This document shows positions 1 to 9,505 of a stretch of 64,000 bases of DNA, piece by piece. Position 1 is the first letter of the stretch. Each line of letters opens with the position of its first letter. Both the position numbers and the translations under genes were made by a program. The stretch comes from Hypanus sabinus (taxonomy: Eukaryota). The stretch lies in contig NC_082713.1 of NCBI RefSeq assembly GCF_030144855.1, positions 56,978,001-57,042,000 of the forward strand. Reading direction: 5' to 3'. Under the pieces are notes generated by a model, which was not told the origin of the DNA, did no database searches, and was given only the letters and a program-made list of their open reading frames with translations.

Positions 1-300
1 GCAATCTGACTTCCTCAACATGAACACCGTCCGAGAAATATCAAGGTTAAATATAGTGTCTGTGCGAGACTGTAAACGAACCGGGGGACGATTCAACACA
101 AAGCGGCCCGGAGTGAGAGTGGAATCCGTTCCGCCAGATTTTTACCTGCATTTCCCGAACGTCCCCTATGTTGACATGGCCGACAATGCGCCTGCGCGTC
201 TTCACGCACGACATCGCCCTCACCAGGTACACTGCCCCCTGCCCCGGCTGACAAACACCCGCACCCATTGCTCATTCCCGCTCTTCACCAAACTGCAGCA
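1..300. promoter_or_regulatory. CpG-rich promoter-like patch (NRF1-like and YY1-like motifs)
   Basis: Locally high CpG density; TGCGCCTGCGC at 187-197 (NRF1-like), ACATGGC near 174-180 (YY1-like), ACTTCC near 9-14 (ETS-like). No recognisable protein in any frame. Confidence 0.35.
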
Positions 301-427
301 TTTCCTGATGATATTTCAAATTTTCCACATCTGCAGTTTCATACCTTTCTATACTGTATGGGAAATTAGTCAAATATTTAAACCCAAATGCGATGCAAGG
401 CCATCTGTTCTGATATAAAATTATTAC

Positions 428-590
428 AACATAAGAAGTGTGTGCAGGGGTGAGCCATTCAGCCCCTCAAGTCTACTTCACCATACATCAACATGGCCAC
501 TCACTTCCTCCAGGGCAGGAAAATGTGTGGAATCTATCTCTGCTTTAAATGAACTGAGCAAAAGAGCTTTATGGGATACAAAATTTCAGA
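428..590 (-). mobile_element. Degenerate CR1 LINE 3' end
   Basis: Resembles reverse-complemented CR1 3' tails elsewhere in the window (ACATAAGAAG...GCCATTCAGCCCCTCAAG...ATCTATCTCTGCTTTAAAT). Confidence 0.55.
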
Positions 591-826
591 GAAAGAAGTC
601 TAAGAGTCCGCGCACAAAAGCCCCAATAAAATCAAGCACTTATTCCCAAATCTCGGGTTAAACTATAATTTTCTGCGCCAAGACCTCAAAGTATTCTCTC
701 CCTGTTACCCTGGGCCGCTGAGCCAAAAACCTGTCCCTTTGTACCTGAGACAGGAAAAAAAAAACTCAAGAGGCCCTTACAATCTACTTCCACACTGTCG
801 TTTTGCTCTTGTTCATCCTGCAGGTG

Positions 827-1081
827 TTATAGGCTGTAACGATACATTTTCGGTGTTTCTTTCTCCACTAAGCTTGCTTCAGTAATTGCCACGAGCATTG
901 GAAATTGTTTGGTTGCAGCACGCACTACAAGAGACTTGAGACAAGGAAGAAAACAGCACAGCACAAGCGCACAGCTCAACAATACAATACTGACAGTTAT
1001 TGCTATTTTATTCAGCCATGCTCCCCATCCTCCGAGTCTACTTTCTAACCAGTCAAAGAACTGATGTCCGGACCCTGCATT
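827..1081 (-). pseudogene. env: ERV env remnant: membrane-proximal region, TM helix and cytoplasmic tail
   Basis: FFDWLESRLGGWGAWLNKIAITVSIVLLSCALVLCCFLPCLKSLV: Trp-rich segment, hydrophobic helix and CCxxPC motif typical of fish ERV1 TM; stop at 827-829. Confidence 0.85.
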
Positions 1082-4000
1082 CTGTGCGCATACCTCGCAC
1101 TGTGACAAGACAAAGTCCACTGAAGCATGTAAATAAGGTGACCAAAAACCATCCTTCCTTATTTTCTTTATCACTTCCCCCCTTGCACAATGGTCAATCC
1201 CATGCGCTTCTGAAATCAGAATCGTCAGTAGAGGGGTGGGCGCTACCAACAAACCGTCTTCCATGCTCCATAAGCCTTCCAGGTTCTGCTTGGCCCCCCT
1301 TCGTCTCCACATTGTCTGTTCTGCCAAAGTTGCCTTACCTTGTATTTCAATTAGGTCCTCTACCTCAGGTTCTGGAGTTAGGCTTGCCTGGGGGGCAATG
1401 ACAGCTGACGTACACCCAGACGCTTTTCTGGCTGCCTCGTCCGAAGCTTGATTTCTCTTTGTTATTACATCATTTCCCTTTTTATATGCCTGACATTTTA
1501 CTATAGCCAATGCTTTAGGTTTCAATATGGCTTTTATTAAGTCTAGAATTTGCTGACAATGTTGTATGGGATCTCCATTACTTTTTTAAAAACCTCTCTG
1601 CTTCCACATTGCGAACAAATTGCATACTCCATGAGCATATGCCGAATCAGTATAGATGTCTACTTTCTCCCCTTCCATCATTTCACATGCAGCTGTCAGG
1701 GCTTTGATTTCTGCTAGTTGGGCAGAACACAGTTGGGGACAGGACTCCATCCTAATAATCTTATAGCTCGACTGATCCTGCTGCACTACTGAGAACCCTG
1801 CATGATTTCCATCATAATCCCTGTAACAAGAGCCATCTACGAACAGAACCTTTTTATCTGCATCCTCTAGTGGTTCTGACCGTAAATCTGCTCTCAATTT
1901 GGCAAATGTCATCGTCTTCCCTACACAATCATGGGGTTCTCCTTCATAGCCCAAAGGGACAAAATCGGCTATATTACTGGTAGTGCATCTCTGTATAGTT
2001 ATGTCAGGAAATGTCACTAGCATCTGATACACTGCTATCCTCGCTGGCGTCAGCACAAATTTCCCTCTTTCCAGCAATTCTGCTACTTTGTGGTGTGTGT
2101 ACAGAGTCACAGGATAGCCCAGGGTTACAGATGATGCCTTTTCATATGCAGAGTACAGCGCCGCCAATCCCTGATAAAAGGGTGGATACCCCTAAGCCAC
2201 CTCATCTAGTCTCTTACTGTAGTATGCTATCGGCTGCTTTGCTTTTCCTGTGCCTGTCTCTTGTGTTAGAACCGCTGTGACATAACCCTCCTGTCAGTTG
2301 GATACATACAAATGAAAAACCTTCTCGTAGTCAGGCAAAGCTAATGCTGGTGCTGACTGCAATTCCTGCTTAATAGTATTGAAAGTTATCTCCGCCTCTC
2401 CATTCCACTGTAAGCTGTTCTTCAAATTTGTATGTCCTGCTTCTTTCATTATCTTTCTCAAAGGTGCCACAATCTCAGCATATTCTCCTATCCAATCTGA
2501 GCTGTACCCTGCCATTCCCAAAAACGTCATCATCTGCCCTACAGTCTGGGGTTTTGGGGCCTTACTTATTGCCTCAATCTGATCTGGTGCTATCACCTTC
2601 ACTCCCTTGGATATTACCCTGCCTAAGTATTCCACTTGCTGCGTGCAAAATTGCAGTTTCTTTTTGGATACTTTATGTCCTCCATGCGCCAGCTTCTCTA
2701 ACAGAGTTATAGTGTCCTGATCACACTGTTCCTTGCTGTGGGAGCAAATCAGTAGGTCATCCACATACTGTAACAATGTACTTTCCAATGGTATGCCCTC
2801 TAAGTCTGCCTTCAACACCTGATTAAAAACGTGTGGTGAATGTTTAAACCCTTGCGGCATTCTGGTATAGGTATACTGAGCATCTCTGTAAGTAAATGCA
2901 AACAGATACTGACACTGGTCGGCTAGAGGAATGCTGAAGAAAGCCGAACACAGATCATTCACTGAAAAGTAACTTGCGTCTGGTGGAACAATAGTCAAAA
3001 GCGTGTGTGGGTTGGGGACTACCGCTGGCCAGTCCTCTACCACATCATTTATCGCTCGCAAATCATGCACCAATCTCCACTTGGATTTATCTGCTTTTAA
3101 GATCGGCAGCAACGGTGTATTGCATGGACAGTTTGTTCTTTTAAGCACTCCTATTTCAAGCAAGCCCTGTACTGTCGATGCTATTCCCTCTTCTGCTTCT
3201 GGTCTTAGAGGGTATTGTGGTCTCCTGGGTGGAATTGCTCCCCTTTTCAGCCTTATTTCCACCAGACTAGCTGTTTTTATTTTCCCTCCGTCCGTGTCAT
3301 GCTGTGACCACAGAATAGATGGCTACTCATCTAACCTTCTATCTTTCTGCTGGCTTCTTTCCTTTCCCAGCAATGGCATGTGTGTTTGGGGAGTTATTTC
3401 GACCTCTCTCACTGTCCCTACCATATCTACACTTACCACTATTTTAATGCAATTGTTGTCTTCCGATATCCACACCTCTGGCGTGATTTTCCTCCACACT
3501 GTTACAGTTTCAGCACTCTTAACTAAGGGTCCTAAGTCTTTGGACTGATATCCCTTATTTACCAACAATGTTACGTGGGGAACAGCCTGTATCCTGTACC
3601 ATTTTTCTAAAAAGGTGTTCCACTTAACTTGTAAAGCTGCCCCTTGCTTTCCAATTATCACAGCCTCCCCTTCTAGGTGCTGTTGGGTACATGCCTCCAG
3701 GTGCCATCTCTCCTCTAACTCCCTGTTCTGAGTCTCGTCAAAAATCCCTGTACAATGTAGCTCAGATTTGGGCATTACAGCCCTGGGTAATAAAGCCTGC
3801 ACGCCCTTTTTCCATTTTTCCCAGGTTTCCTGAATCTGATCTGCGATGTCTCCTATCCAAAAGACATTAGCCTTCTTGTCTTCTCGCACTATCAATTGAG
3901 CCCCTGCTCTTTCCACACTCAGCCCATTTCTGGTGCATTCTAATTTTAATTCCAGTTTCAATAAGGCATCTCTGCCTAACAAATTAATCGGAGTTCCTTT

Positions 4001-4287
4001 AAATACTAGCACCGGCAAAACAATTACTTTATTTCCCATTCTCAACCGCACTGGAGCTGTGCACTGTGTCAACTGTGTTTTCCCCGAGAACCCTACCGTC
4101 TTAATAAACTTTCCTGACAAGGGAAGGTGAAGGGCATACTGTGGCTGTACACAAGTGTACGTGGCTCCAGTATCCATCATCATTGGTGTCAGTTGCCCTT
4201 CTAACATAACCTGAACAATGGGTTCCTCGTCTGCCTCCCTTGTTATCATTGGGTAATATCCCTTCCCACTCGAGTTCTCGGGGCACC
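1082..4287 (-). pseudogene. pol: ERV pro-pol (protease, 2H-phosphoesterase-like domain, RT, RNase H, integrase N-terminal zinc finger), disrupted
   Basis: ORF pieces 3323-4249 (MMMDTGATYT, NLLGRD, HCT, HVT), 2294-3262 (NTPLLP, DLRAIN, DLCSAFF, MPQGF, QYVDDLL), 1586-2167 (FVDGS, SAQLAEI, YTDSAY), 1082-1525 (HGIDH...CEVC). Confidence 0.95.
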
Positions 4288-6655
4288 CTAATACCTCGCA
4301 TAGGGATTCACAGGTCCACTTGGGCCTGTGGGGGCTGGTTCTTGGCTAAACTTTAGTTCCCTTCTTATCGGTTCCTGCTGGTGTGTGACAGGCCATGGTG
4401 TAAACGGACAATCTCTTCTCATGTGACCTGGCTGATTACATCCCCAGCACAATCTCTCTACCTCTCTTTCCCCCCATTTCCTCACTGGTCCCCTCTGCCC
4501 ATAGCTCCTCTGTCCCCCTCCTTGGGACTTCCAGTCCTGTCTGGGCTGTTTGAATTTAGTCTGTTCCTGATAGGGCATTTGTGAGAATGCTCCTCCAAAG
4601 ACTTTGATTATTGGCATGGGGTTTTCCGGCCCTTGTCTTACAGTATGATCAGTTCCTCCATATAGTGGTGCTTCATCCAGTTTGATGGCTGTACTTGGAC
4701 CGGTGGTTGCTGGCAGCATCTTTTTGCTTTTCCCTTTTTCCTTCTTTTTGAGTTCTTCGAGCTGCATTTGTATTAACTTTCTTTTGCACCTCTTCCTGCC
4801 AACCTCAGCCAACCTTCATTTGTCTTTCCGGTACTTCTCAACCGCATGGACTACGTGGTCTCTAAATTCTTGTGGGGTCATTGACATCAGCCCAACCACT
4901 TCCTCCAGTTTGGATTTTACTTGCGGAGGCATTGCATCAAAAATGCTATGTCGGAACAGTGTGGTGATAAATAAGCTATTTTCCACCTCTTGCTCAGTCT
5001 CCAGTCTCCACCTTTTCAACTGGTTTTCTACGTAGGTTGCTGGGTTTTCAGTGTCTCCCAGTGGATCCCCCTTTAAGGCTTTGGGGTCCACTTTGGGTGG
5101 ATAAAGCTTCCTGGGGGCCTACCATACCCTCTGCCTCACTCTGTCAAACCCGTCTCCATCAGTTCTCTGGTCGTTCGAGTTTACTATGCCAGCCATTTCC
5201 ATTAGTTCATTAAATTTGGAGGTTCCCATCAACCTTATCAATAGTGCCTTCAAATCTCCCATAGCCAATAATCGTCCCACTGTTTCTTCTTCAAAGGCTC
5301 TAATCCATTTCCCTGCTCCTTCATGTAGATTGGGCGAAGTGTTTTTCAGCCCTTCTAGGTCCTGGGATCCCCAGGGGATGTACTGCACTTGTCCTCATCC
5401 TTTAACTAACAATGGCATCATTCTTCCTCCTTCTTCCCACCTGCCCTGGCTCTCCTCCTCACCTGACTCCCCATCTGTCTCAGGGTATGTCTTTACTGCC
5501 TCCCACACAAATTTTTCCGGGGGTCCTCTTCTTCCCTCGGTCTCCTTGTGGAGTCCTTCCTTTCTGTCCTGATTCAATACTTGGTTGGCCTCTGGAGTAT
5601 TTTTCGCATCTCCTCTGGCAATCCCCTCTCAGTAACTTATCTAGCTCTCTCTCTACTTCCGTACGTCGCTTCCCTACCGCCTCCTTCTGCTCTTCTAGGC
5701 TTCTGCCTCCTACCTCTTCCCCAAAAATTCTCGTATCCTCTCTCTCTCCACTTAACTCTTGCTCCTCCAATGAGTCACCTTCTCTTTCTTCCTGTCCGTG
5801 TCTGTACACCTGTGGCAGGGACTCCTCATGATCCTTACTCGTGCTTGATTCCCTTCTCTCTTGTGTTTCTCCAAGACTCTCATCTCCTATCTTTTTTCCA
5901 CTTCCCCTTGAATGCCTCATCTCTTCCTGCCCTGATGAGCCCCTTTCTTTTCTAGTCTGTTTATTTCTATGGTATAACCGATAATCCTCATACTCCTTTT
6001 CCTCTCCCAAGTACTTCATCCGTTCAATCTCTTCTTTTTCATTTCTCTCTTTGCATGTTCCACCTTTATCCTTTCTGCCTGTATCTCCTTCCATATCACC
6101 ACTTTTTCCTTCTCGTATTGTTTTTTTTCCTTCTTGTATTGTTTTTTTCCTCCTCATTATCCCAAACTTGTACTTCTCCCTGCATGTTTACTGTTCCTGT
6201 CAGCAAGGGGCAATGCTTAAGGGTTCCTTCCTCATTATAGGGAGGGGGCTTTTCTGTTTCTGTCGCATCCGGGTACGGAGCTGAAGCCAGCTTCTCACCA
6301 TACCTTCCTCTCTCTCTAACAGGCTGTTTCTCCAGCACCTTAGTGTCTTCCTCGCTTGTAATCAATATTCTCCCTGTCCTCCTCAGCCTTTCTCCCTCTG
6401 TTCTGAAGAGTTTTAGCACTTCCATTTCTCGTTCTCTTTTTTGCCCTCTTTTCTTAGATTTATCTTTTGGTTTGTAATTTTTAATTAGTGCCTCCATTTC
6501 TTCGCACAAGCTTACATCAAACGTTCCTTCTCTTGGCCATTTTGTGACCAGGTTTTTGGTTCTCTTTTCCCATTTTTCTGAAGTTTTTGTGATCTCATAT
6601 TTATTTACCAGGATTTTTTGCTCAGAATCTCTACTGCCGTTCCTTTACCTGTCAT
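4288..6655 (-). pseudogene. gag: ERV gag, frameshifted and with stops
   Basis: Probable ATG at 6655; KWPREGTF matrix-like motif, KPPPY late domain, capsid-like YIPWGSQDL/GAGKWIRAFEE, CWGCNQPGHMRRDC zinc knuckle, TAG at 4288-4290. Confidence 0.9.
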
Positions 6656-7298
6656 GTTGTTCTCTCTTTTTAAGGTATTCCAGAGATTCACAGTTCGTTT
6701 ACTGGATAATTTTATTTACTCTAATTCTATGCCTAGTCTATCGTCTATCTACCAGCGTTTTAAACTATATATTGGACTGTCCTTGTTTCCTATTCTGTTC
6801 TGCCCGTACAGACCTCTATTCAGAGCTGTATCCACAGAACTTGCTCTTTGCACCTTGTCTATTCAGACCTATATCTCTTAAGGTGGTTTCCACGAGGATT
6901 TTCTCTATTTTCCCTTTCCCTGCCCATTCAGACCTTCGTTTTATATGAAGCGGTATCCATAGAGATTTACCAACACCACGTGGAATTTTTCTTAACTTAA
7001 CTTCTTATTAACTTATTTGTACTTACCCTCACTGCAGTGTTTTTGATCAATCCTCTGAGCCTCCTGTTAACCCCCAATTCTGCTAGATTCTTTGGACTGG
7101 AGAGACCCTTTGCAGTGGTTCCACACTTCTGAGACTCCAAGACCTCCCCAAAACCAACAGAATTCTTAGTCCAAATTGTCGCAAAAAGCGCTTACCTTTT
7201 GTTTGGGTGCGCCCTTTATTCTGTTAGCCTTGTGGGGGTCCCTAGAGGACTAGGAAGCGTCCCCAATCTGCCGTTTCCTTTCCGCGGGTCCCTTTCCG

Positions 7299-7316
7299 GT
7301 CCTGCTGCGGTCGCCA
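7299..7316 (-). promoter_or_regulatory. ERV primer-binding site (tRNA-Ser-like)
   Basis: TGGCGACCGCAGCAGGAC starts after a 4-nt spacer following the LTR end ...CCACGACA. TGG complements the tRNA CCA; the TGGCG...GCAGGA pattern resembles tRNA-Ser 3' ends (tRNA identity is inference). Confidence 0.75.
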
Positions 7317-7320
7317 ATTT

Positions 7321-7470
7321 TGTCGTGGTTTCTCGTGCCCCGCGGGTGACCAGGAGGCTCGGGGGATTCTTCAGGAAGTATTGAACTTTAATTTGCAAAT
7401 CAAAGTTTAACCCTTCTTGAAGAATCTTCTGCATCTCCTGGTCGTTTGTGGGGCAGGAGAAACCACGACA
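7321..7470. repeat. 150-bp imperfect palindrome of LTR R/U5-like sequence occupying the 5' LTR position
   Basis: TGTCGTGGTTTCTC...GAGAAACCACGACA; 58 of 75 positions match the reverse complement without gaps; centre ATTTGCAAAT at 7391-7400. Confidence 0.9.
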
Positions 7471-9505
7471 ATAGCACCGCTTGGCCTCTGAGTTTCTCCG
7501 CATGCCATTTAGCCTGAAGAATGCAGCACAAACTTTCCAACAGCTGATCGACTCTGTACTAAAAGACTTAGATTTTCTTTTCGTTTACCTGGATGATATA
7601 CTTGTCACCAGTACCTCAAAATCCAAACACGTATCACATCCTAGCACACTTTTCAAGCGCTTAAGCCTTCACATCTTGCTTATTAATCCTGCTAAATGCA
7701 GTCTGGGTTGTCAACCATTGACTTTCTCAGTCCTCACATCTCTGCAGTAGTTGTAAACCCCTCCCATGGAAAGTCACTGCAATTATGGATTTCCCACCAT
7801 CCAGCACTACTACAAAAGTACAAGAGTTTTAAGGTATGGTAAATTTCTATCACCGCTTCATTCAGCCGCTGAACTTATTCTCTCCCTGTATAGTGTCCTT
7901 AAAGGCAATGTTCCTAATTGCGTGCCTGACTGAGAGTAGACATGACCAGAGTATTTCATGACACCAAGCGAGCTCGTTCCAACATGACCCTATACCTGCT
8001 CCCCAACACACCTAGAAGCCATTACTACTAACTCTTCCCAGGTTGACTATGCCAGCATGGCAGCCGGCCAAACTACTGACCCAGAGGTCCAGGCTTCCTG
8101 AACAGCAGTCACGGGCCCGTGGATGACTGACGTTAAGCTCAAGGAAGCTGGGGTCTCTCTCCTGAGCAAGGCCTCAGCCGGACGCCCTCAGCCCATAATG
8201 CCCGCAAGATGGAGGCAGACCGCTTTTAACTCCATTCACAGATCTTCGCATCCGGCTGGAAGGCCTTACAGAAACTGTTTGCACTAAAGTTTGCGTGGCA
8301 CGACCTTAGAAAAGACCTGTGTGATTGGAGTGCAGCCAAGTTGAGTGCCAGTGGGCAAAAATTAACTGTCACGTTCAGGTACCACGAGCACCTTATCAGA
8401 TCCCTGTGCAACCTGGATGGTCCTCTTCACCCCTCCTGTGGTTTCACGCATCTCCTTACCATTGTGGACCGTAGCACCGGCTGGCCAAAGGCCATTCCTC
8501 TAGCATTGACGATGGCCGCAGATGTGGCACAGACACATGTTCTGAGGTGTTCGGTTTGGCAACACATCTGATATTTCCTCTGACCGTGGTCCCCAATTCT
8601 TATCAGACCTCGGGGCTGCGATGGCCCACAACCTCGGCGTTAGGCTACATCACACCGTGGTGTATCACCCGCAGTCCAAGGCCTGTGTGAGTAGTTTCAC
8701 AGATCCGTAAAGGCTACTCTGATAAGTTTTGGCATGATCGTCTCCCGTGGGTCCTGCTGGGGCCCAGAACAGCTCTAAAAAAAGATCTGCATAGCTGAGA
8801 TGGTATGCAGGCAGTCATTACGCGCACCAGGTGATTTTGCTCCTGAAGCCACAGCCACCTGGTCAGCAGCATTCTGCCCTCTTCAGAAAATTCAATTCCT
8901 TTGCACCTCTTCCTACCTCCCATCATGGTGTCCTGTTGACCTACAGTCCACCTCGTTCACTTTCATCTGCAATTTCATCTACAATTTCATCAGCACAACA
9001 ACATCTCCATAAGCTCCCTTATGATGGCCCATTCTGCACTTCAGAAAGGAGACAAAAGCCTTTTATCATCGATAGGAGGAGTAAACCTGAATGTATTTTG
9101 GCCCACCAAAAGTTGGAGGGTCCCATTACCACGTCCCTGGTGTCACGTCATGATCAGGAGTGTGTCCACACACCTCCAGAGAGCCGGAGGCGCCTGCTGT
9201 TACTCTAGTCATGGAGCATGGGACCTGAGCTGGGCGGCTCGCCCAAGCTCCAGGGAGGCTCACATTGCCGGCTGTGCTGAATTCTGGGGGTTTCTGTGTA
9301 GAGTAATATAACAGACGCATAATTCACAACCACCCACATTCAGTTGGGGTTCACTTTAAGAGGCTGGTCTGACGTGATGATGTAACAACGTGAAGTTTTA
9401 ACCGCACTTTATGCTCTGTGTTTGGTTGATAATAAAGGGAGTTGATATGGTGTCTCTTAAACTTAAAACGCCTCTGCCATTTTATTTGCGAAAACCTACA
9501 CTGCT
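7471..9505 (+). mobile_element. Degenerate Ty3/Gypsy LTR retrotransposon (RT C-part, integrase, PPT, 3' LTR about 9297-9505)
   Basis: EFLRMPFSLKNAAQTFQQLIDSVLKDLDFLFVYLDDILV (RT); HLLTIVDRSTGWPKAIPL and SDRGPQF (IN); G-rich tract at 9286-9290, then TGTAG..., AATAAA near 9431. Confidence 0.85.

Follow-up and report, generated by a model that had tools for sequence, protein, structure and literature searches.

Background

Phosphoesterase domains of the 2H superfamily, and of the CNPase kind in particular, have been in print for fish retroviruses for about 20 years (Mazumder 2002; Basta 2009; both as related in PMC9503650 and PMC4977317), and some endogenous retroviruses (ERVs) of ray-finned fishes are described, with reference to Basta 2009, as encoding a CNPase or a macro domain (PMC4977317). 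CNPase itself performs 3'-hydrolysis of 2',3'-cyclic nucleotides by means of two HxTx motifs (PMC11629607), and 2H domains of cellular and viral origin commonly clean up 2',3'-cyclic RNA ends (PMC9503650). Here we analysed a stretch of 64,000 nucleotides of the stingray Hypanus sabinus (NC_082713.1, forward strand, positions 56,978,001 to 57,042,000; hereafter the window), in which an initial annotation, made from the letters alone, had proposed a 2H-like domain between the protease and the reverse transcriptase (RT) of an ERV and had stated that such domains were known from fish retrovirus pol, which the papers above bear out. Judged from its predicted structure, the 2H domain is real, conserved and CNPase-like; the provirus that carries it is defective, and the kind is already in print.

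Results

A predicted 2H domain between protease and reverse transcriptase

The domain, 168 residues in length (P0002), is encoded on the minus strand, in one frame with the protease before it and the RT after it (Table 1). The open reading frame (ORF) that holds it, 3323-4345, has its start ATG at 4247-4249 and its stop at 3323-3325, exactly as first annotated, and after its Pfam RVP match (residues 39-135, E 5.3e-10) come about 200 residues for which Pfam has nothing. Re-reading the sequence also upheld the two histidine motifs, ELHCTG and VPHVTLL, both of them intact and 60 residues apart. A pair of H-x-[TS] motifs 50-110 residues apart appeared by chance in 1.6% of 20,000 shuffles, and a stricter pair flanked by hydrophobic residues in 0.03%, so that the motif pair alone is suggestive, not decisive. 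The two H-phi-[ST]-phi motifs by which 2H enzymes are recognized are present as HCT and HVTL, the fourth position of the first being glycine here; of 171 relatives, at least 165 carry a hydrophobic residue in its place. Because nearly all aligned sequencing reads differ from the window in that codon, the glycine is probably a private change of the window copy.

AlphaFold2, supplied with a 70-sequence alignment, modelled the domain with a pLDDT of 95.5 and a pTM of 0.89 (94.4-95.5 over the five models), and each catalytic histidine opens a predicted strand of the model (E49-54 and E108-113). Searched against the PDB with Foldseek, the model gave 50 matches at E<=0.001, the best being a CNPase (E 6.1e-6), and among the matches listed all are CNPase, RICH or the fungal tRNA ligase 6u05. 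VIA-align, run over 48,161 representative chains, placed CNPase 2xmi at rank 1 (Z 16.0, rmsd 3.9, 164 residues aligned) ahead of a runner-up at Z 9.4; named 2H enzymes occupy ranks 1-16 and 18-20, that is, 19 of the top 20, with a mitoribosome chain at rank 17 and an uncharacterised protein at rank 21. A second structural comparison returned human CNPase 1woj at Z 16.9 (rmsd 2.5, 159 aligned). Goldfish RICH scored 13.4, the cyclic phosphodiesterase (CPD) domain of the fungal tRNA ligase 6u05 13.2 and LigT 8.3-8.9, while the further 2H enzymes found by VIA-align were drCPDase (9.4), an archaeal 2'-5' ligase (8.9), Usb1 (7.9), a plant CPDase (7.8) and, among the viral and other phosphoesterases, mouse hepatitis virus (MHV) ns2 (8.4), Acb1 (7.5), rotavirus VP3 (7.3), AKAP18 (7.3) and the penguinpox phosphodiesterase (PDE) for cyclic GMP-AMP (cGAMP; 6.7). 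Families outside CNPase, RICH and Trl1 thus reach Z 9.5 at most, against 16.0-16.9 for CNPase. The ESM Atlas independently leads to the same kind of domain, its top clusters (score 0.96) carrying PF08302, tRNA_lig_CPD, in 18-63% of their members.

Sequence searches returned little for the domain. Pfam had no match for it, phmmer against the PDB reached E 0.48 at best, with an unrelated chain, and a first profile search was dominated by the RT included in the alignment, with goldfish RICH (E 1.8) as its single 2H row. In Pfam, 3 of 37 members weakly touch 2_5_RNA_ligase2 and 2 of 37 LigT_PEase, at E 0.04-0.13. P0002 has no match to the CNPase family PF05881 above the Pfam cut-off, and the likeness to CNPase is structural. 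Nor does the domain group with the viral 2',5'-phosphoesterases and their kin (ns2, NS4b, VP3, AKAP7), which at Z 7.2-8.4 and 8-14% identity fall far under CNPase; bat NS4b appeared in the BFVD database at E 0.13. On the evidence of the model, then, the domain is a member of the 2H superfamily, as had been suspected from the motifs, and resembles the CNPase/Trl1-CPD branch of it without being a Pfam CNPase member.

Conservation of the catalytic residues in a family of fish elements

An exhaustive phmmer search found 138 proteins at E<=0.001, including one false positive, P0125, which consists of DUF7507 repeats. The closest named relatives are three Hypanus sabinus proteins, 87-89% identical; the other named ones are ERV proteins of teleosts (seadragon, pipefishes, smelt, Danio, cichlids, salmonids, Takifugu, loach, mormyrids, killifish and characins), with no tetrapod among the named matches, themselves a minority of all matches. 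Two further matches, P0204 and P0206, are labelled as bacterial metagenome-assembled genomes and sit on 2-3 kb contigs; these are probably fish DNA in gut bins. The database names of P0005, P0078 and P0089 (Siah1, neuronal calcium sensor 1 and RAD9B) do not fit their retroviral sequences and look like misannotations.

A profile was built from 63 stretches, leaving out P0125 and the doubtful or partial P0051, P0126, P0034, P0068, P0079 and P0131, and everything under 150 residues. By this profile the histidine of motif 1 is kept in 154 of 164 stretches and its Thr/Ser in 160 of 165, the corresponding figures for motif 2 being 173 of 178 and 172 of 177. Of the 144 stretches that cover all four catalytic columns, 131 have the two motifs whole, namely 37 of 37 proteins of at least 900 residues with YxDD and 94 of the 107 others; a cruder MAFFT alignment gave 76 of 99. 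The motifs are therefore conserved across copies, as the initial annotation had supposed, with a histidine spacing of 60-68 in the family (mode 63). One catalytic threonine is missing from two of the three stingray copies, which fits the decay of insertions.

Placement was scored in the 132 proteins with a domain match of at least 120 residues. Protease upstream together with RT downstream was found in 23, protease upstream only in 20, RT downstream only in 32, neither motif in 53 and an off-place motif match in 4, so that 75 of the 132 show one or both neighbours, spaced as expected and without a motif in conflict. In the 21 proteins that carry both domains the mean pairwise identity is 49% for RT and about 32% for the 2H domain, and the two sets of identities vary together (Spearman 0.76 over 210 pairs; equalled in 0 of 2000 permutations). 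The window element clusters with four relatives (smelt, pipefish and two others) in both the RT and the 2H tree, the same five-member clade having support of 1.000 and 0.973, respectively; both trees are unrooted, and P0133, whose RT match is too short, is not in the tree set. The covariation of 2H domain and RT would fit a single acquisition that preceded the spread of the clade. The domain is no speciality of a cartilaginous-fish lineage: a broad clade of teleost ERVs carries it, and the window element is nested among these teleost elements.

Four proteins from tilapia and pipefish (P0078, P0089, P0109 and P0145) have protease, the 2H domain and parts of RNase H or integrase, with neither an RT match nor YxDD. 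The two pipefish members of this set are both 943 residues long and lie on different contigs. Such proteins could be non-autonomous elements that keep the domain or could be artefacts of gene models.

Related copies in sequencing reads

Of the 24 sequencing runs listed, 20 contain part of the domain stretch, none of them reaching half of its words; related DNA is present in 18 runs at word shares of 0.33-0.45, and two runs recorded as RNA have small shares, 0.08-0.09. Four runs aligned to the stretch showed many near copies. Over 3390-4250 the related copies differ mainly by C>T and G>A changes (in run X22 at 35 of 63 places), a pattern such as the decay of methylated CpG would give. Among the 40 differences listed, of 88, those in catalytic codons (3569 and 3575) fall at third positions, with none listed at 3749-3757; within the domain 13 of 26 are synonymous, against 21% for random changes, a weak signal given the transition bias and the unlisted differences, and one that we do not count.

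A probable related fold in Env of the walleye viruses

In BFVD, searched with Foldseek, the top match of the model is a 1072-residue entry, Q2VF30_1 (TM 0.86, E 1e-11), and the Env proteins of walleye epidermal hyperplasia virus 1 (WEHV1; Q9WHI8, TM 0.81, E 7.9e-11) as well as walleye dermal sarcoma virus (WDSV; A4GTG3, TM 0.72, E 1.9e-7) also match; giant-virus proteins come next after the Env entries. The Env of WDSV has a predicted cytoplasmic loop between helices at residues 850-874 and 1045-1069 (PMC3185748). Since its length of about 170 residues equals the size of the domain, we infer that this loop may adopt the 2H fold. On these structure predictions the fold appears to occur in Pol of one clade of fish retroviruses and in Env of another, and in both placements it would lie on the inner side of the virion.

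The provirus in the window

The element around the domain has the gag-pro-pol-env order and the RT type of a class I (gamma/epsilon-like) fish ERV (Table 1). Its RT found p80 RT/RNase H chains as the best PDB matches (E 2e-66), followed by chains labelled Moloney murine leukaemia virus (about 1e-49) and Pr125Pol (1e-32), and is nearest the gammaretroviral type among solved structures. Compared with 20 retroviral Pol proteins related to it, of which those with a name are teleost, it shows 42-57% identity; proteins of WDSV, WEHV and salmon viruses were absent from the matches of word-indexed searches.

Table 1. Coordinates of the 2H domain and of the other features of the provirus
Feature	Position	Strand	Basis or remark
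2H phosphoesterase domain, CNPase-like, 168 aa (P0002), predicted	3395..3898	-	AlphaFold2 model, VIA-align, 138 phmmer matches
Catalytic motif 1, H-C-T	3749..3757 (His 3755-3757, Thr 3749-3751)	-	next residue Gly
Catalytic motif 2, H-V-T	3569..3577 (His 3575-3577, Thr 3569-3571)	-	read from sequence
gag region, interrupted by stops and a change of frame, with a zinc knuckle in 4288-4815	4288..6644	-	ORF pieces; PF00098 E 5.9e-05; tblastn P0085 at 4759-5364
Retroviral aspartyl protease, DTG (Asp 4172-4174)	3941..4231	-	Pfam PF00077 E 5.3e-10
In-frame stop between 2H domain and RT	3323..3325	-	ORF list
Further in-frame stops	2294-2296, 2192-2194, 1586-1588	-	ORF list
Reverse transcriptase, class I (gamma/epsilon-like)	2297..3322	-	RVT_1 E 2.6e-28
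RNase H	1592..1855	-	PF00075 E 1e-12
Integrase zinc-binding domain	1079..1237	-	PF17921 E 0.0028
Env transmembrane anchor and short tail	827..1060	-	41% over 51 aa to P0173 C-terminus
18-mer that begins with TGG and resembles a primer-binding site, 4 nt beyond the CA end of the putative long terminal repeat (LTR)	7299..7316	-	sequence
150-nt TG...CA element, putative 5' LTR or part of one	7321..7470	-	self-complementary fold

The copy is defective, with four stops in pol and with the integrase core and most of env missing. The stop between the 2H domain and RT separates the two, and the window copy therefore cannot make a whole Pol. Aligned by tblastn, a full-length relative of Pol can be followed as far as 1061, which is its residue 1049 of 1347 and lies before the integrase core, and the frame of the integrase zinc finger continues into the Env anchor (827-1237), with the integrase core and the Env ectodomain missing; we infer from this arrangement that an internal deletion may have joined an integrase fragment to the Env tail. 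The Env relative used for the tail, P0173, carries PF00429; region 827-1060 itself has no match to P0089 and none in Pfam.

Upstream in the element, gag and pro overlap by 58 nt (4288-4345) in different frames. Either the window copy has an indel here, or the two meet at a frameshifting junction; for related fish viruses the use of stop-codon readthrough has been described (PMC13517186). The stretch 7320-7471 is self-complementary along its full length (-81.1 kcal/mol, z -11.8), and the terminal 14-mer of 7321-7470 occurs exactly at its two ends only. The window holds no second copy of this element, and Rfam had no match in window positions 1-9000. If it is an LTR, it is unusually short and palindromic. 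Abutting it, on the opposite (plus) strand, fragments of a second LTR retroelement extend over 7475-8700, with RVT_1 at 7475-7747 (E 8.4e-13) and an integrase-core-like match at 8440-8689; judged by its motif, this element is putatively Ty3/Gypsy-like.

Discussion

The puzzle posed by this domain is why fish retroviruses keep an extra nucleotide-processing enzyme, and the present findings sharpen it: the domain is predicted to be CNPase-like and not ns2/VP3-like, its motifs are whole in each of the 37 long Pol proteins, its divergence follows that of RT, and a like fold is predicted in Env of the walleye viruses. We propose, with a probability of roughly 0.55, that in an active virus it would serve as a Pol-encoded, metal-independent 2',3'-cyclic phosphodiesterase, likely packaged in the virion. 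Made within Gag-Pro-Pol and carried into the particle, the domain would either be released by the viral protease or stay joined to RT, and its His/Thr pairs would act as in CNPase, opening 2',3'-cyclic phosphates so as to leave a 2'-phosphate and a 3'-OH. Most speculative are the substrates, which might be the cyclic-phosphate ends that metal-independent RNases of the host leave on viral RNA or on the primer tRNA, or else 2',3'-cyclic mononucleotides, and, with them, the purpose, which might be to clean up damaged RNA ends around reverse transcription. The initial annotation had offered two functions, degradation of 2',5'-oligoadenylate (2-5A) or cyclic dinucleotides and processing of RNA ends. 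Scores of Z 16-17 for CNPase against 6.7-8.4 for the viral hydrolases point to 2',3'-cyclic-phosphate chemistry, and so favour the second of these and leave the first less supported. That the catalytic columns are the best kept, at an overall identity of about 32%, argues for catalysis.

Several points weigh against this proposal. A shared fold shows no substrate, and viral 2H enzymes that cleave cGAMP have been proposed to be convergent from host 2H PDEs (PMC13577500), so that a CNPase-derived domain could also have switched its substrate. Sequence identity to CNPase is just 11-16%, the ESM recognition value of 2187 is under the 2300 line of the tool, the domain profile found no PDB chain at E<=10, and the Pfam CNPase model was touched by a single one of 37 members (E 0.011). 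The 37 long proteins are not independent, several being near-relatives from salmonids, and 63 of the stretches scored with the profile had also gone into building it. The relatives that keep the domain without RT or YxDD weaken any role tied to RT, and the match to WEHV1 and WDSV Env implies that adjacency to RT is not required. Finally, to our knowledge most retroviruses replicate without such an enzyme.

It is possible, if unlikely, that the domain instead hydrolyses an immune messenger, 2'3'-cGAMP or 2-5A, and arrives with the incoming core so as to dampen cGAS-STING or RNase L. Reverse-transcribed DNA triggers cGAS, the viral 2-5A and cyclic-dinucleotide enzymes are all among the structural matches of the domain, and an occurrence in Pol and, by structural match, in Env is what a portable accessory function would show. 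Animal viruses do have 2H enzymes that cleave 2-5A (ns2, NS4b and VP3; PMC8406329), and 2H enzymes that cleave cyclic dinucleotides occur in an avian poxvirus and in phage (PMC13577500). However, the enzymes acting on immune messengers score Z 6.7-8.4 where CNPase scores 16-17, and the family is found mostly in teleosts. Teleosts are not known to have OAS or RNase L, a point that our literature search did not confirm. The elephant shark is reported to have an OAS. The histidine spacing of 60-68 in the family also differs from the superfamily average of 80 (PMC8406329), and the string 'retrovir' has no occurrence in the main text of 10.1101/2025.08.21.671373 or in PMC13577500, both of them papers on viral PDEs. 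Doubtful, too, is a scenario in which a CNPase-type gene, captured early, was retooled as a virion-borne nuclease acting on an innate-immune second messenger such as 2'3'-cGAMP, has stayed catalytically intact in bony and cartilaginous fishes alike, and came to lie in Pol in one clade and in the cytoplasmic loop of Env in the walleye viruses. In that case the domain would be an enzyme that antagonizes nucleotide signalling, which is not known from any other retrovirus.

Could the fold matter more than the chemistry? The CNP of the host is associated with membranes; it binds MA of HIV-1 and inhibits the formation of particles at the plasma membrane (PMC7471995), and a domain whose nearest fold is CNPase might mimic or compete with this Gag-binding, particle-blocking protein, catalysis being secondary. 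The predicted cytoplasmic loop of WDSV Env (residues 874-1045; PMC3185748), about as long as the domain, would place the fold at the inner face of the membrane. We consider this improbable, because no columns are better kept than those of the catalytic His and Thr/Ser (in 37 of 37 long Pol proteins) in a family of such low overall identity, and because 11-16% identity to CNPase is low for a surface mimic.

Distinctly improbable, in our view, is some other RNA phosphodiester chemistry in reverse transcription, such as Usb1-like 3' trimming, LigT-like 2'-5' ligation or the opening of ADP-ribose-1'',2''-cyclic phosphate. Usb1, LigT and the plant CPDase share the fold, and the Pfam touches to 2_5_RNA_ligase2 and LigT_PEase lean the same way, yet all three enzymes score far under CNPase and the touches have E values of 0.04-0.13. 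Macro domains act on related ADP-ribose products. Other fish ERVs do carry macro domains (PMC4977317). That the motif pair arose by chance, or that the domain is a dead passenger or spacer, we reject for the family: the absence of any Pfam match or of a PDB sequence match under E 0.48, the defects of the window copy and the threonine losses in the stingray copies are set against a confident 2H model, structural scores of Z 16-17 and family-wide retention of the motifs, and only the window copy is dead, as part of Pol.

Returning to the proposed cyclic phosphodiesterase, the domain is small and soluble, and its substrate is therefore directly testable. Activity on cyclic phosphates, if true, would mean an RNA-end repair step in retroviral replication and a viral handle on the purpose of CNPase; activity on cGAMP or 2-5A, if true, would mean a retroviral immune-evasion enzyme.

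Comparison with known systems

Our literature search, made largely in openly accessible papers, found no functional test of a fish-retrovirus 2H domain. A paper on shark ERVs (PMC4422223) has no occurrence of the terms phosphodiesterase, CNPase or domain, and a survey of zebrafish ERVs (PMC8672886) none of phosphodiesterase or CNPase.

Among cellular proteins, vertebrate CNPase and fish RICH (PF05881; 1woj, 2xmi, 2i3e) share with the modelled domain the fold over about 160 of its 168 residues, at Z 13-17, and the two HxTx motifs; compared with the CNPase catalytic domain, the window domain is about 40 residues shorter, has 11-16% identity, stays under the Pfam threshold and lies inside a viral polyprotein. 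The CPD of fungal Trl1 (PF08302, 6u05) and the small CPD-like proteins of phages and giant viruses are close as well (Z 13.2 for 6u05; ESM clusters at 0.96), but the window domain comes without a ligase or kinase module and is 10% identical to the Trl1 CPD. The viral 2',5'-PDEs (MHV ns2, MERS NS4b, rotavirus VP3) and cGAMP PDEs are viral accessory enzymes of the same superfamily, yet with 108-125 residues aligned at Z 6.7-8.4 they belong to another branch of it. The Env proteins of WEHV1 and WDSV, together with Q2VF30_1, are the top BFVD matches, although there the predicted fold is in Env, whereas in the window element it belongs to Pol and the Env tail is short.

The nearest system is that of the 2H/CNPase domains already described, which likewise belong to epsilon-like fish retroviruses; the relatives of the window domain in zebrafish, salmonid, pufferfish and other teleost ERVs lie at the junction of protease and RT. 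The citing review gives ray-finned fishes only as hosts of the described domains, while the host of the window element is a cartilaginous fish, and this widening of the host range is all that the defective window copy adds to them.

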